43,530 nt of DNA from a virus. Lineage: Duplodnaviria; Heunggongvirae; Uroviricota; Caudoviricetes. Numbering within the stretch: position 1 is the stretch's first letter; every line of letters begins with the position of its first letter. The position numbers were made by a program, and so were the translations under genes. The notes under the pieces are model-generated. The model had not been told where the DNA came from. It did no database searches and saw only the letters and a list, made by a program, of their open reading frames with translations. The DNA lies in the IMG/VR virus record IMGVR_UViG_2734482773_000003, positions 1 through 43,530 of that record; one strand, written 5' to 3'. This document shows, one piece after another, positions 20,347 to 25,528 of this stretch.

Positions 20347-20997
20347 ATGAGCAAACCGGACTGGGAGGCCATCGAGACGGCGTACCGGGCCGGAGTGATG
20401 TCCCTCCGAGAAATTGCTTCACAGCACGGTATTAGCGAAGGCGCTATCCGTAAGCGTGCCAAGCGTGACGACTGGTCGCGTGACCTCAATGCGAAGATTC
20501 AGCAAAAGGCTGATGATCTGGTACGCAAACAGGAGGTACGCAAACAGGTACGCAACGAAAGCACTTTGACCGAGCGCGTACTGATAGAGGCGACTGCCGA
20601 GGTAATTGCCACGGTACGCATGGAGCACCGGGGAGACATCCGCCGGGCTCGTGAACTGACCAACACGCTATTCGATGAACTTGGTGCGCAGTGCGCAGAT
20701 GTAAGCGCGCTCGAGCAGTTGGGCGACATCATGTTTGACCCCGACGATAAAGGGCGGGACCGGCTCAATGAAATTTATCAGAAAGTGATCAGCCTGCCTT
20801 CCCGCGTTAAATCCATGAAAGACCTGAGCGACAGCCTAAAGACGCTGATCGGCCTCGAGCGTGAGGCATACAGCATCGAGAATAAGGCTGAAACGAAAGA
20901 GGTCACCCATAACGTCATGCTGGTGCCAACCAGTGACAACGTGGATGACTGGGAGGCGGCAGCGCAGAAACATCAGGACGGGGTGCTCGGTGGATGA
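20347..20997 (+). CDS. terminase small subunit (HTH-containing)
   Basis: GGAG upstream; N-terminal HTH (MSLREIASQHGISEGAIRKRAKRDDW); directly precedes and overlaps the large terminase. Confidence 0.7.
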   Translation: MSKPDWEAIETAYRAGVMSLREIASQHGISEGAIRKRAKRDDWSRDLNAKIQQKADDLVRKQEVRKQVRNESTLTERVLIEATAEVIATVRMEHRGDIRRARELTNTLFDELGAQCADVSALEQLGDIMFDPDDKGRDRLNEIYQKVISLPSRVKSMKDLSDSLKTLIGLEREAYSIENKAETKEVTHNVMLVPTSDNVDDWEAAAQKHQDGVLGG

Positions 20998-22556
20998 ATT
21001 ACAAAGCTGTATGGAAGCCACTGCCTGGATCTCAGTCCCTGGCGCTGAGCTGCCCGTGTAACGAAATCCTGTTCGAGGGCACTCGCGGACCGGGCAAGAC
21101 AGCTGCGCAGTTAGCCAGGTTCAGGCGTAATGTCGGCGTGGGTTATGGCTCGTTCTGGCGCGGCGTCATTTTCGACACCGAATATAAGAACCTTGCCGAC
21201 ATCATCACTCAGTCGAAGCGTATGTTTCGCCTATTCAACGACGGTGCGCGCTATCTGTCATCTGCGAGCGAATTGCGATGGGTATGGCCCACAGGCGAGG
21301 AACTTCTCTTCCGCTTCGGCAAAGAGGCAGACGACTACTGGGATTTCCACGGGCAGGAATTCCCGTTTATCGGCTTTAACGAGCTGACTAAACAGCAGTC
21401 CCCGGAATTCTACGAAATGATGTTCTCGTGCCGACGTTCATCGTTCAGGCCGGAAAACTACCCGCTGGAGAATGGCAAGTTACTGAGGCCAATCCCGCTA
21501 GAGACATTCAGCACGACCAACCCGTTTGGCATCGGGCATACCTGGGTGAAGAAGCGCTTCATTGAGCCAGCGCCGCGCGGAACCGTACAGCGCGACCGGC
21601 AAATGGTATTCAACCCTCAGACTGAGCGAGAAGAGGAAATCACGCTGACCCGCGTGGCAATCCACGGCTCGTTTAAAGAAAACCCGTACCTCGACCCGCA
21701 GTACATCGCGACCCTGATGGCCATCAAAGACCCTAACCGACGCAAGGCCTGGGTAGAGGGCTCCTGGGATGTGACCAGTGGCGGACGATTTGACCACCTG
21801 TGGAATGAAGCGCTGCACGTCATTAAGCCGTTCCGCATACCGGATAGTTGGACCGTCGACCGCTCCCATGACTGGGGTGAGTCGAAGCCGTTCTCTAACC
21901 TCTGGTGGGCCCAAGCTGACGGCACTGCCGCCGAGCTGCCAGATGGTCGACAGTTCTGCCCGCCGGCTGGTTCGATAATCCTGATCGGAGAATGGTACGG
22001 CTGCCCGCCTGACGAGCTGAACAAAGGCCTGAACATGTCATCCACCAACGTCGCGAAAGGCGTGGCGTGGATTGACAAGCGGCTTGTGGGCGAAGACGTC
22101 GACGAGCCGGAAGAGATTCAAATCGACGGGGTCACGCAGGGCCAACTCAACATTGTGCCGGGAATTTGCTCGGAGGTTATTCCTGGCCCAGCTGATAGCG
22201 CCATTTTCAACACTGGCGACGATGAGTTATCGATCGGTCAGAAAATGGAAAATCAGGGTGTTGAATGGCTTGAGGCCAATAAGAAGCCAGGCTCTCGAGT
22301 CAACGGGGCTTCGGTATTCGCCGACATGCTTGAGGCGGTGGTTGAGGGTAAGAAGCTGGAATCTGGAATTCCTGAGAAGCCTGCTTTTTACGTGTTGGAG
22401 CATTGCCGTGGCTGGATTAGCCGCATACCCGTGCTGGTTCGCGACAGCAAAAACCCGGATGACGTAGATACCCAGCAGGAAGACCACGACTGGGATGCTA
22501 CCCGTTACCGCGTGCTGCACTCACCTCGCCGTTCAGGGGCGATATTCTTCACATAA
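20994..22556 (+). CDS. terminase large subunit
   Basis: 520 aa; Walker A-like GTRGPGKT; nuclease-domain acidic residues in the C-terminal half; canonical position. Confidence 0.9.
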   Translation: MNYKAVWKPLPGSQSLALSCPCNEILFEGTRGPGKTAAQLARFRRNVGVGYGSFWRGVIFDTEYKNLADIITQSKRMFRLFNDGARYLSSASELRWVWPTGEELLFRFGKEADDYWDFHGQEFPFIGFNELTKQQSPEFYEMMFSCRRSSFRPENYPLENGKLLRPIPLETFSTTNPFGIGHTWVKKRFIEPAPRGTVQRDRQMVFNPQTEREEEITLTRVAIHGSFKENPYLDPQYIATLMAIKDPNRRKAWVEGSWDVTSGGRFDHLWNEALHVIKPFRIPDSWTVDRSHDWGESKPFSNLWWAQADGTAAELPDGRQFCPPAGSIILIGEWYGCPPDELNKGLNMSSTNVAKGVAWIDKRLVGEDVDEPEEIQIDGVTQGQLNIVPGICSEVIPGPADSAIFNTGDDELSIGQKMENQGVEWLEANKKPGSRVNGASVFADMLEAVVEGKKLESGIPEKPAFYVLEHCRGWISRIPVLVRDSKNPDDVDTQQEDHDWDATRYRVLHSPRRSGAIFFT

Positions 22557-22566
22557 GGACAACTCA

Positions 22567-24042
22567 GTGAGTAACGATACAGAAATGCAAGTCCTCGCTG
22601 GGCTGATTGTGAATAGCCTCAACGAGGTATCGCGATCTCGACAGCTTTATGCGGCTGGCTTCAATAAATCAGGCAACACCAAGCGACATCATCTGTGGTG
22701 TGAATTTGGCTATCCTGAGCGCCTCGACTTTGACCACTTCTACAACATGTATGAGCGCAACGGTGCCGCGTTCGGTGCTGTTCATAAGTTGCTCGATGCA
22801 TGCTGGACTGATACCCCGGTGATCGTCGACGGCGATGAGACGAAGAAGTCTAAAAAGTCGACGCCATGGGAAAAGAAAGTCACCAAGCTCATGAAGAAAT
22901 ACTGGGCCAAGGTGAAGGACGCTGATAGACGTAACCTTGTCGGTCACTACTCAGCCCTAATTCTTCAGTTTGCCGATAGTCGTGAATGGTCTGAGCCAGT
23001 TAATCGTGACGTAATGCGTAATTCGCGCGAGCGTGGCCTGGTGAAGATGATTCCTGCATGGGAATCGCAGGTAAAGCCTGGCGAATTAGAGCAGGATCAG
23101 AAGTCCCCTGATTACGCCATGCCGAAGTTTTATTATTTTCAGGAGCAACCTGTAGGGGACAACGGCAGTATTGTTGGTCCTATGCGCTCAATCAAAATTC
23201 ATCCTGAGCGCATCATTATTTTTTGCGAGGGTTCAGAAGATGAATCCTCACAGGCTGGCATCCCGTTCTTGCGTGCAGGCTATAACGACCTGCTGGATAT
23301 GGCTAAAACCTCCGGCGGCAGCGCTGAGGGGTTCCTGAAAAACGCCAGCAGGCAGCTCGGCATTAACATGTCGAAAGACACCAAGATTGACAAAATCATG
23401 GAGGATGCCAAGAAGGCTGGTTACTCGGGGCTGGCTGAGGCGCTTAACGCTGCTATCCAGAAGCTTAACTCTGGTACAGATTCGGCCCTGGTGACGCAGG
23501 ACGGAGAGGCTAAAGTGCTTTCCGTTGCCGCTGCCGATCCGAGTCCAACGTGGACAGTGTCAGCTAACCAGTTTTCATCTTCAGTCCAGATGCCATTCAC
23601 CATCTTGTTTGGTCAGCAGACAGGAAGGCTTGCTTCAGATCAGGACAAAAACGACTTTGCCAAGCGCTGTAATGGTCGCCGCAACGGGTTCCAGACTGAC
23701 CGGGCAAGTGCAGTTATAGAACGGCTTTGGACTGTGGAGGTTATCGAACCACCTAAATCTGGCGAAATCACGTTAACCTGGTCTGATCTACTCGCTCCAA
23801 GCGAGAAAGAGAAGATTGCCAACATGAAGGAAATGGCTGCGGTGGCGAAGGATACCCAGCAAGCCTACGGCACACCTGCTGTTGATGAGAACGAGGTCAG
23901 GGAAGCGGGAGAACTTGAGCCGCGTGAAGATGTTAAGCCGCCTGATCCAAATAAAAAGGTAACGACCGATGATCCTCTTTCCGATGACGCCGGAGCAAAA
24001 GACGAAAGTCGGGACACCGGTAGTTCCGCGCAGCAAGGTTGA
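22567..24042 (+). CDS. portal protein
   Basis: ORF 22495..24042; GTG 22567 with AAGGA 7 nt upstream, just after the terminase stop (alternative ATG 22585); about 490 aa with acidic C-terminus, directly downstream of the terminase. Confidence 0.7.
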   Translation: MSNDTEMQVLAGLIVNSLNEVSRSRQLYAAGFNKSGNTKRHHLWCEFGYPERLDFDHFYNMYERNGAAFGAVHKLLDACWTDTPVIVDGDETKKSKKSTPWEKKVTKLMKKYWAKVKDADRRNLVGHYSALILQFADSREWSEPVNRDVMRNSRERGLVKMIPAWESQVKPGELEQDQKSPDYAMPKFYYFQEQPVGDNGSIVGPMRSIKIHPERIIIFCEGSEDESSQAGIPFLRAGYNDLLDMAKTSGGSAEGFLKNASRQLGINMSKDTKIDKIMEDAKKAGYSGLAEALNAAIQKLNSGTDSALVTQDGEAKVLSVAAADPSPTWTVSANQFSSSVQMPFTILFGQQTGRLASDQDKNDFAKRCNGRRNGFQTDRASAVIERLWTVEVIEPPKSGEITLTWSDLLAPSEKEKIANMKEMAAVAKDTQQAYGTPAVDENEVREAGELEPREDVKPPDPNKKVTTDDPLSDDAGAKDESRDTGSSAQQG

Positions 24043-24973
24043 CCCAACCCTATCGGCAAAGCAGGTAACCGCGATGTTCCGGGATATCGAGAAGCGATAT
24101 ATCGGCATCAAGCGAGCGCTGAAATCTCTGTTCGACCAGCGCCTTACCGGGCGTGAGCGCGAGGTTAACAGCCATAACTGGCACTTCCTTTGTCATGACC
24201 ACGGCGCGGATATGCGCCTCTACCAGGTAAACGCCGGCAAGTTCATCTACGACATGTCGGCGCAGGAACTGGCGGACCTGCTGGAAGCGGTGCAGGCCAT
24301 TCTCGACGATTACCTGCTGGATGGTGGCGAGCAAAATCTCTGGGCGAAGGATTACGTCGTCGCAGAAGCGCAGCGCGGCACGCTTGAGGCATTCAATAAC
24401 CTCTCGCAACAGTCGCAGGTGTATGCCAGTCAGACGACGCTGCAGCAGCTTTTAAGCAGTCCCGGTCATCTTAATCAGGTGGCAGCGGCAAGGCTGACAA
24501 CGTTCAGTGACTGGAAGGTCATCAGCGATACAGCCCGCGGCGACCTGACCAACATCATCACCGATGCGGTCGCGCGCGGGGTGAACCCTCGCGAGACGGC
24601 CAGCGTAATCAGCAAGCGCCTCGATGTGTCGATGTCGAAGGCAAAGACCATCGCTCAGACTGAGCAGGTCGGCGCACTGCGGCAGGCACAATGGAACGAA
24701 ACCGACTGGGCTGCTGACCGGCTGGGGCTGAATACCGGCCTACTGTGGTTGTCAGCGCTAAAACCAACGACGCGAACCTGGCATGCCAGCCGCCACGGCA
24801 AGGTCTACACCACCGAAGAGATTCGGGACTTCTACGCCGAGAACGGCAACCGGTACAACTGCTACTGCAGCCAGATCCCAGTGCTGCTCAACGACGACGG
24901 CAGCATCTTCAATGAGGGGCTGGCTGAGAAACTGGCGAAAGAGAGGAAAGCTTGGAAATCCGAGTCGGAGTGA
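23969..24973 (+). CDS. head morphogenesis protein (Mu F / SPP1 gp7-like minor head protein)
   Basis: 334 aa; conserved C-terminal region (WHASRHGKVYTTEEIRDF...NCYCSQIP) typical of minor head proteins; start uncertain (23969 overlaps the portal by 74 nt; alternative 24074). Confidence 0.65.
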   Translation: MILFPMTPEQKTKVGTPVVPRSKVDPTLSAKQVTAMFRDIEKRYIGIKRALKSLFDQRLTGREREVNSHNWHFLCHDHGADMRLYQVNAGKFIYDMSAQELADLLEAVQAILDDYLLDGGEQNLWAKDYVVAEAQRGTLEAFNNLSQQSQVYASQTTLQQLLSSPGHLNQVAAARLTTFSDWKVISDTARGDLTNIITDAVARGVNPRETASVISKRLDVSMSKAKTIAQTEQVGALRQAQWNETDWAADRLGLNTGLLWLSALKPTTRTWHASRHGKVYTTEEIRDFYAENGNRYNCYCSQIPVLLNDDGSIFNEGLAEKLAKERKAWKSESE

Positions 24974-25012: not shown

Positions 25013-25528
25013 ATGAGCAGTGTAACTCCGGCAGAAGTCGGTTCATTCTTTTTATCTCTAGTTGTTCCAATCACCACTGGGGTTGTGGCAGCAGGATTTA
25101 CTGCATTTTTCGCTCTGAATCGATTTTACAAAGAAAAATGGTGGGAGAAGAAACATGCTGCGTACAATCAATTAATTGATAAATTATTTGAAATCAAAGC
25201 AATTTATTCCCACGCCTCAGATTTTTACGAGGCTGAATACAATGCTGGTATGTATGATAGGCCGCCGCCGAAAGGGTCTGTTGATTGGAATACATTCCAT
25301 CAAATAAAAGCGCAACTCCATCGGTTTTATGTGCTCGCACCAATCTCTCTAAGCAATAATACAAGGGATTTGCTCAATAATTTCTTCAAGCAGGACGCTG
25401 ATTCCGATCATAGTGTTTACGAAGAGGGTTACCCAGATTTTGTGGCATACAATGATATGACGATTGCGACCCAGCAACTTATTGATGCCATTGTCTTGGA
25501 CGCTGAAAAAGAACTTAAATTTAAATAA
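25013..25528 (+). CDS. AT-rich inserted gene: membrane-anchored protein of unknown function (candidate exclusion/defence protein)
   Basis: 171 aa; AAGGGTGAG upstream; single N-terminal TM helix FFLSLVVPITTGVVAAGFTAFFAL then soluble domain; visibly AT-rich versus flanking head genes; own terminator downstream. Confidence 0.5.
   Translation: MSSVTPAEVGSFFLSLVVPITTGVVAAGFTAFFALNRFYKEKWWEKKHAAYNQLIDKLFEIKAIYSHASDFYEAEYNAGMYDRPPPKGSVDWNTFHQIKAQLHRFYVLAPISLSNNTRDLLNNFFKQDADSDHSVYEEGYPDFVAYNDMTIATQQLIDAIVLDAEKELKFK

Follow-up and report, generated by a model that had tools for sequence, protein, structure and literature searches.

The portal/minor head junction of this prophage raises the question of where the second gene begins, and whether it begins inside the first. 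The window, which is the whole stretch of DNA analyzed, is 43,530 nt long, and the features described here are on its plus strand unless stated otherwise. The portal gene (22585..24042) terminates with the TGA at 24040-24042, and the minor head, or head-morphogenesis, gene (23969..24973, 334 codons) is read in the +1 frame relative to the portal. With the ATG at 23969 as the start, the two genes overlap out of frame by 74 nt (23969..24042; 24042-23969+1), and the start is located in an acidic portal C-terminal tail that has a net charge of -5 over its last 25 residues. The initial annotation had placed both the overlap and the acidic tail correctly. It had also treated 23969 as the sole ATG for a full-length product, but the minor head frame is open from 23963 and contains in-frame ATGs at 23969 (M1), 23984 (M6), and 24074 (M36), the second of which is also in the portal tail. 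In a single sequence the overlap is within chance, as a random frame stays open for 35 codons in ~19% of cases ((61/64)^35). The overlap is significant because all 91 distinct relatives keep the open frame and the ATG at 23969, and because of the codon-position pattern of their substitutions. On this comparative evidence, the minor head protein is probably translated from the ATG at 23969 through Shine-Dalgarno-directed initiation, and the junction is a real and ordinary co-directional overlap.

Both open reading frames are real genes with homologues. The portal product matches the DUF1073 / Phage_portal_3 family (PF06381, E = 1e-23; phrog_146, E = 3.7e-112), and the 3' end of its gene holds the overlap. 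At the other end of the portal gene, the start codon is uncertain. It is possibly ATG 22585, which is the PGAP call in the near-identical E. coli prophages L135 and L136, or GTG 22567, while the ATG at 22495 in the mechanical list of open reading frames is an unlikely start given the sequence around the terminase stop. The minor head product has a PF04233 (Phage_Mu_F) domain at residues 194-302 (E = 1.3e-11; 45.6 bits against a Pfam gathering cut-off of 29.6), and its residues 1-332 align with positions 1-317 of the 326 in the phrog_758 "head morphogenesis" profile (E = 2.2e-141). The gene order is terminase (20994-22556), portal (to 24042), and the Mu F-like gene (23969-24973), so that the latter is directly downstream of the portal in the packaging module, the context expected of the MuF family. 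The score above the gathering cut-off likewise makes the product a member of the MuF / SPP1 gp7-like proteins. Two minus-strand open reading frames across the junction, 23788-24111 (107 aa) and 23865-24059 (64 aa), have been rejected as spurious, since they have no Pfam match and are interrupted by stops in 30/91 and 10/91 relatives, respectively. A PADLOC scan of a neighbouring AT-rich open reading frame gave no match.

MuF genes follow portal genes (PMC5576092), and the window shares both PF04233 and the position right after the portal gene with SPP1 gp7 and Mu gpF, members of the MuF superfamily (Jamet et al. 2017, PMC5576092). Only the C-terminal domain (194-302) of the window product fits PF04233, and a toxin domain is absent. 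In SPP1, each capsid contains one to two, or "a few", copies of gp7, which binds the portal (PMC5576092, PMC6316719). By analogy, the window product may be a portal-binding internal head protein of low copy number.

The start codon has been examined by comparison with relatives. A tblastn search of 50,697 phage records with the 334-aa product matched 341 records, and the alignments begin at query residues 1-19, upstream of residue 36, in 54 of the 60 rows listed. Stop-to-stop translations were made in each frame for 17 phage loci. One genome per species was also scanned, which provided 36 prophage loci, and IMG/VR supplied 80 more. Together, the phage, prophage, and IMG/VR loci gave 91 distinct segments, each an ungapped stretch of 360 nt at the junction. 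These segments are mutually related, so that the counts out of 91 given here are not counts of independent events.

The initial annotation had offered a second possibility, with the downstream ATG at 24074..24076 as the true start codon, and this possibility did not survive the comparison. In its strict form, translation would start at M36 only, and the open frame upstream would be a chance extension. Such an arrangement avoids the overlap, the ATG is conserved (90/91, with GTG in the remaining relative), an SD-like CAGGT is located 7-8 nt upstream, and seven GenBank phage records annotate this start. The sequence upstream of 24074, however, contains the conserved minor head N-terminal motif TPVVPRSKVDPT (residues 16-27; 24014..24049), which spans the portal stop. 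The family consensus of this motif, P-[IV]-[ILV]-P-x-[NS]-x-x-D-P-[TLVA], describes 17 phage and 36 prophage loci as well as the N-terminus of ES18 gp6. In all 17 phage loci fetched, the motif is upstream of the M36 equivalent, and the hosts of the loci with the motif belong to at least 10 genera (Klebsiella, Enterobacter, Erwinia, Cronobacter, Mannheimia, Salmonella, Vibrio, Pseudomonas, Pseudoalteromonas, and Streptomyces). Judged by these alignments, no N-terminal motif of the family is better conserved than the one in the 35 codons upstream of 24074. The phrog_758 profile alignment also covers the protein from residue 1.

The coding signal upstream of M36 is further supported by the distribution of variable sites. 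In 24043-24073, where only the minor head frame could code, all 11 third positions are variable, and their mean entropy is 0.82 compared to 0.14 and 0.20 at the other codon positions (p = 1.3e-4, Mann-Whitney). Over the longer interval 23987-24073, variation is biased to the minor head third positions (p = 6e-9, Mann-Whitney). By this substitution pattern, the region upstream of 24074 is read as coding in the minor head frame. Between M1 and M36, the frame is free of stops in all 91 distinct relatives. The residue equivalent to M36 is isoleucine in Streptomyces phage SF3 and leucine in a Mannheimia phage, which identifies this position as internal and hydrophobic. As a result, 24074 is described here as an internal methionine codon, and the reading in which it is the sole start is extremely unlikely.

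The database annotations of this start are divided. Fourteen annotated phage records have been examined. The internal methionine is the annotated start in seven of them (MK448231, PQ571297, KY271396, MH443100, NC_019927, JX403939, and MK714353) and the start is inside the portal gene in the other seven (MK448233, KP137433, NC_054641, JF314845, MG592398, JQ288021, and KC542353), all of the latter with overlaps of at most 56 nt. Homologues starting uniformly at the equivalent of 24074 would have favored the downstream start, but besides the latter seven records, the curated ES18 and four PGAP-annotated E. coli prophages also start upstream, inside the portal gene. With the internal methionine as the start, the annotated protein lacks 28-35 residues, among them the N-terminal motif that is most conserved in the family. 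Prodigal allows a same-strand overlap of 60 bp at most (PMC2848648), which would force a truncated call where the overlap is 74 nt. The remaining truncated calls are probably explained by the overlap penalties of gene callers.

Two candidate start codons are left within the portal tail, M1 (23969..23971) and M6 (23984..23986). The most likely start is M1, which is an ATG in 91/91 relatives. NCBI's PGAP independently chose it in three E. coli prophages, one of which is 99.4% identical to the window, and the annotated overlap there is 74 nt. M1 is preceded at a distance of 8-9 nt by an SD-like AAGGT (23956..23960), located inside the portal codons AAG GTA. The match is weak in the window (4-5 nt), and AAGGT is kept in 90/91 relatives, and 56 of the 91 have the better AAGGTGA. 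In L032 and L048, the M1 equivalent is the sole ATG, GTG, or TTG upstream of the motif. Upstream of the motif, L025 has a GTG (codon 14) besides M1, and in L027, M1 is accompanied by this GTG, a TTG (codon 4), and an ATG (codon 8).

The portal third positions, used as a neutral yardstick, provide an additional line of evidence for M1. Between 23937 and 23991, only two portal third-position sites are invariant, each in 91/91 relatives. These are G 23958 of the AAGGT, for which AAA would be synonymous, and T 23970, the T of the ATG, where GAT and GAC are synonymous. Of the other nine such sites in 23937-23967, eight have an entropy of 0.95-1.86, and 23967 has an entropy of 0.48. The sites 23973 and 23982, in minor head codons 2 and 5, are nearly invariant. 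The invariance or near-invariance at 23958, 23970, 23973, and 23982 is the pattern expected if selection acts on an SD, a start codon, and the initial codons of a second frame.

Other observations point to the second ATG, at codon 6, which would give a 59-nt overlap and leave the five codons from 23969 untranslated in this frame, unless both ATGs are used. Two sub-clades have radically different codons 2-5 (ILFP and IHWP), and the three nucleotide changes responsible are for the most part silent in the portal frame. This short stretch therefore looks more constrained by the portal than by the minor head frame. In Erwinia phage 49, the M6 equivalent is the sole possible start, with a stop two codons upstream, and the start cluster of the "MMMTAQ" prophage clade, which also has a stop immediately upstream, is at most two codons away from M6. 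T 23985 is nearly invariant at a portal third-position site. In addition, variation peaks at portal third positions upstream of 23969 and at minor head third positions from ~23987, and the best change point from the portal to the minor head frame is at 23977-23989, where M6 is located. On the other hand, no SD at a usable spacing has been found before 23984. The M6 codon is an ATG in 88/91 relatives, being replaced with CTG in two and ACG in one, and it is deleted in L048, while M1 is never lost. A start at M6 also leaves the invariance of 23958, 23970, and 23973 unexplained, and PGAP picks M1. Initiation at M6 is therefore considered unlikely, and the ATG at 23969 is kept as the probable start.

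The position of the portal stop (TGA, 24040..24042) varies among the relatives. The overlap is 74 nt in 70 of the 91 relatives, 68 nt in 10, 65 nt in eight, 38 nt in two, and 26 nt in one. In Klebsiella phage ST11-VIM1phi8.1 (L003), a single G->T change that is silent in the minor head frame (CCG->CCT) creates a portal TGA 48 nt earlier, so that the portal gene ends at 23994. The stop and the overlap length drift (26-74 nt) while the minor head start is fixed, because the portal tail is unconstrained and ends at a chance stop. This moving stop agrees with the model of Fonseca et al., which attributes most same-strand overlaps to 3' extension of the upstream gene (PMC3887535).

The lack of constraint on the portal tail is also evident from the substitution pattern. 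In 23984-24042, the ratio of amino acid to nucleotide divergence in the portal frame is 2.25, compared to an out-of-frame background of 2.17-2.34. The portal third positions in 23987-24039 are no more variable than the minor head first positions (p = 0.38). Purifying selection in both frames does not extend across the overlap, and double constraint is found only in ~23969-23986, where the sequence is ...DDPLSDD in the portal frame and MILFPM in the minor head frame. By these measures, only ~15-18 nt are doubly constrained, and the last ~19 portal codons are unconstrained. The overlap is thus best described, on the aligned sequences, as real in translation but mostly under a single constraint. 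Past ~23987, the substitutions follow minor head coding constraint only, and the last ~19 portal residues form an unconstrained, probably disordered acidic tail that extends until a chance stop is met.

A long overlap raises the question of whether translation of the two genes is coupled, as the initial annotation suggested. The long overlap is supported by the conserved start and SD, but the coupling is not, given that the minor head gene has its own SD, no masking structure was found, and the portal stop is far away. In the proposed mechanism, ribosomes would bind de novo at the weak but conserved SD-like AAGGT (23956-23960) and initiate at 23969. We infer that initiation is SD-directed and not termination-coupled. 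From the portal stop, ribosomes would have to move back 71 nt to re-initiate at the minor head start, which is unlikely. Coupling by the unmasking of a ribosome binding site hidden in RNA structure has been considered and rejected. A single-sequence fold of 23920-24060 shows no unusual folding energy (MFE z = +0.65), and the consensus fold of 18 relatives shows no conserved RNA structure (-4.3 kcal/mol, with 0 covarying or compensatory pairs). A start inside a translated open reading frame and behind a weak SD would hold the minor head output well below the portal output. By analogy, such a low output may fit an SPP1-type protein with few copies per capsid.

The geometry downstream of the portal stop has also been considered. 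A stop, 20 nt, AGGT, 7 nt, and an ATG suit termination-reinitiation, and two isoforms could be made this way, a full-length protein from 23969 and a shorter one from 24074, by termination at the portal stop and re-initiation 31 nt downstream behind the CAGGT. The G at 24064, the third position of the CAG, is nearly invariant (89/91). CAG is the preferred glutamine codon in enterobacteria, and the near-invariance of G 24064 is attributed to this preference, which counts against the two isoforms. Among the homologues examined, 16 to 79 nt separate the stop from the ATG, and the methionine is replaced with isoleucine or leucine in some of them. A second isoform is very unlikely.

The +1 offset of the minor head frame and the length of the overlap, which is sufficient for a shift site, could also accommodate a programmed +1 (or -2) frameshift that fuses the portal to the minor head protein. 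Direct reading of 23969-24042 reveals no slippery or prfB-like site. A minor head frame stop (TAA or TGA, 23960-23962) is present in 90/91 relatives, no conserved stimulatory structure has been found, and the portal stop position is not conserved. The conserved SD and ATG argue for independent initiation. A frameshift fusion is expected to have a conserved shift site and no independent downstream start; the junction has neither property, and the likelihood of such a fusion is close to negligible.

The same arrangement, a start inside the portal gene and out of frame with it, is found in Salmonella phage ES18 in the curated record NC_006949, where gene 5 is the portal and gene 6 is an SPP1 gp7-like head assembly gene. 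As in the window, ES18 has the order terminase, portal, Mu F-like gene, gp7/DUF2213, decoration protein, and coat protein. It also has an SD in the acidic portal tail and the same N-terminal motif, in the version MATKRTKPPILPRNYQDPTG. The ES18 protein is ~35% identical to that of the window, as judged from the near-identical homologue of ST13-OXA48phi12.5, and the gene 6 overlap is 41 nt instead of 74 nt. The PGAP-annotated E. coli prophages NZ_AP045762 (WP_487160669.1, "phage minor head protein"), NZ_AP027512, and NZ_CP063487, which are 99.4% to 87% identical to the window at the nucleotide level across the junction, are the same element or close relatives. In these RefSeq prophages, the minor head gene begins at the equivalent of 23969 and overlaps the DUF1073 portal gene by 74 nt, with no material difference from the window.

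Overlaps of other lengths are found elsewhere in the family. They range from 11 to 59 nt in distant phages. The "MMMTAQ" clade has overlaps of 47-53 nt behind a TAAGGA (11 nt spacing at the 53-nt overlap), and the "MAISQSLTHWPT" clade has an overlap of 83 nt behind a GAGGTG at 7 nt. Across the compared loci, the portal/minor head overlap is a family-wide arrangement. The overlap is already known, in that RefSeq has the correct start, and this is an ordinary junction for the phage family. The literature search for portal/MuF overlap or coupling returned general context only, and no paper on the junction was found.

In all 14 lineages examined, the portal tails have a net charge of -1 to -12 and the minor head N-termini a net charge of +1 to +5. 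A single purine-rich stretch encodes an acidic portal tail and, in the +1 frame, a basic minor head N-terminus. The overlap could be a family-wide device and not only the outcome of stop drift. In such a device, the tail and N-terminus may dock the minor head protein on the portal, and the start in a translated open reading frame may set the low copy number. This proposal is rather improbable. If it were true, the junction would be a conserved functional same-strand overlap of >60 nt, a class that is empty in the survey of cellular genomes.

In that survey of 338 cellular genomes, Palleja et al. (2008) reported no genuine co-directional overlap of >60 bp, only annotation errors (PMC2478687). 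The longest genuine co-directional overlap they found is the 56 bp of holD/rimI in enterobacteria (PMC2478687). Like the window junction, holD/rimI is a conserved same-strand overlap of tens of bases that has been validated with orthologues and has a lineage-specific length. The window (74 nt) and its sister clade (83 nt) are above the 60-bp mark of the survey, mostly without constraint on the upstream frame. The minor head start is backed by orthologue N-termini and conservation, not by open reading frame extension alone, and the 74-nt and 83-nt prophage overlaps are well-supported exceptions to the rule that co-directional overlaps of >60 bp are annotation errors. They also show the origin of such overlaps, in which the unconstrained tail of the upstream gene extends into the downstream gene until a stop. 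The biological weight of this result is small, and its practical value is in annotation.

The boundary of homology with other phages coincides with the start region. In megablast alignments to Klebsiella phages with a divergent portal, homology starts at 23938-23956, just upstream of the SD. The minor head gene therefore appears to travel with its own ribosome binding site and the last codons of the portal gene.

Opposite charges are encoded in the two reading frames at the junction of the portal and minor head genes. The junction of the window (23939-24042) was compared with the equivalent junctions of 13 relative phage or prophage loci (L001, L006-L013, L015, L017, L029, and L040), giving 14 lineages. 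In all 14, the final 25 residues of the portal protein carry a net negative charge of -1 to -12, and the first 25 residues of the minor head protein a net positive charge of +1 to +5. In several lineages read at the codon level, the acidic portal tail and the basic minor head N-terminus come from one purine-rich DNA stretch, in which the portal codons GAA, GAT, and GAC are read as AAG, ATG, and ACG in the +1 frame.

Nine successive third-codon positions of the minor head frame (24019-24043, plus strand) show low entropy among the 91 relatives (0.09-0.84), while the flanking sites have an entropy of 0.86 or higher. Both the portal stop and the conserved motif PVVPRSKVD fall in this patch. The T at 24040, the first base of the portal TGA, is retained in 90 of the 91 relatives. 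Three causes of the low variability are possible: selection may preserve the portal stop, the final portal residues SSAQQG may be mildly constrained, or codon preference may be at work.

Some Klebsiella phages have portal genes that have diverged too far to be aligned by megablast; nucleotide homology to these phages sets in at 23938-23956, which is 13-31 nt 5' of the minor head start. This onset suggests a mosaic recombination joint within the portal tail, so that the minor head gene would move along with its own ribosome-binding site.

At the 5' end of the portal gene, the mechanical ORF start, ATG 22495 (plus strand), would give a 62-nt overlap with the terminase gene, which stops at 22554-22556. 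Two other plus-strand starts are more plausible: GTG 22567, directly past the terminase stop and with TAAGGA 7 nt upstream, or ATG 22585, the choice of PGAP in near-identical E. coli prophages.

In one relative, the E. coli A14 locus L137 (NZ_CP028760, 1-1937), the portal gene is N-terminally truncated and adjoins an InsQ/TnpB gene, and this prophage is therefore probably defective. The DUF1073 fragment is labelled “anti-CBASS protein Acb1 family protein” by PGAP. Its intact homologues, by contrast, carry the name DUF1073 and hit portal profiles, and this conflict between names should be borne in mind.

Between the minor head and DUF2213 genes lies a 171-aa ORF (25013-25528, plus strand) with a hydrophobic N-terminal segment. 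It is AT-rich: its GC fraction is 0.397, whereas the window as a whole has 0.525 and the neighbouring genes have 0.55-0.58. Its sole profile match is phrog_17948, whose function label is unknown; a Pfam search and a PADLOC scan gave no match. The same slot holds differing cargo in relatives: small hypothetical genes or, in E. coli EF7-18-51, a Rap1a/Tai family immunity protein on the reverse strand. This site downstream of the minor head gene has the appearance of an accessory-gene (“moron”) hot spot.
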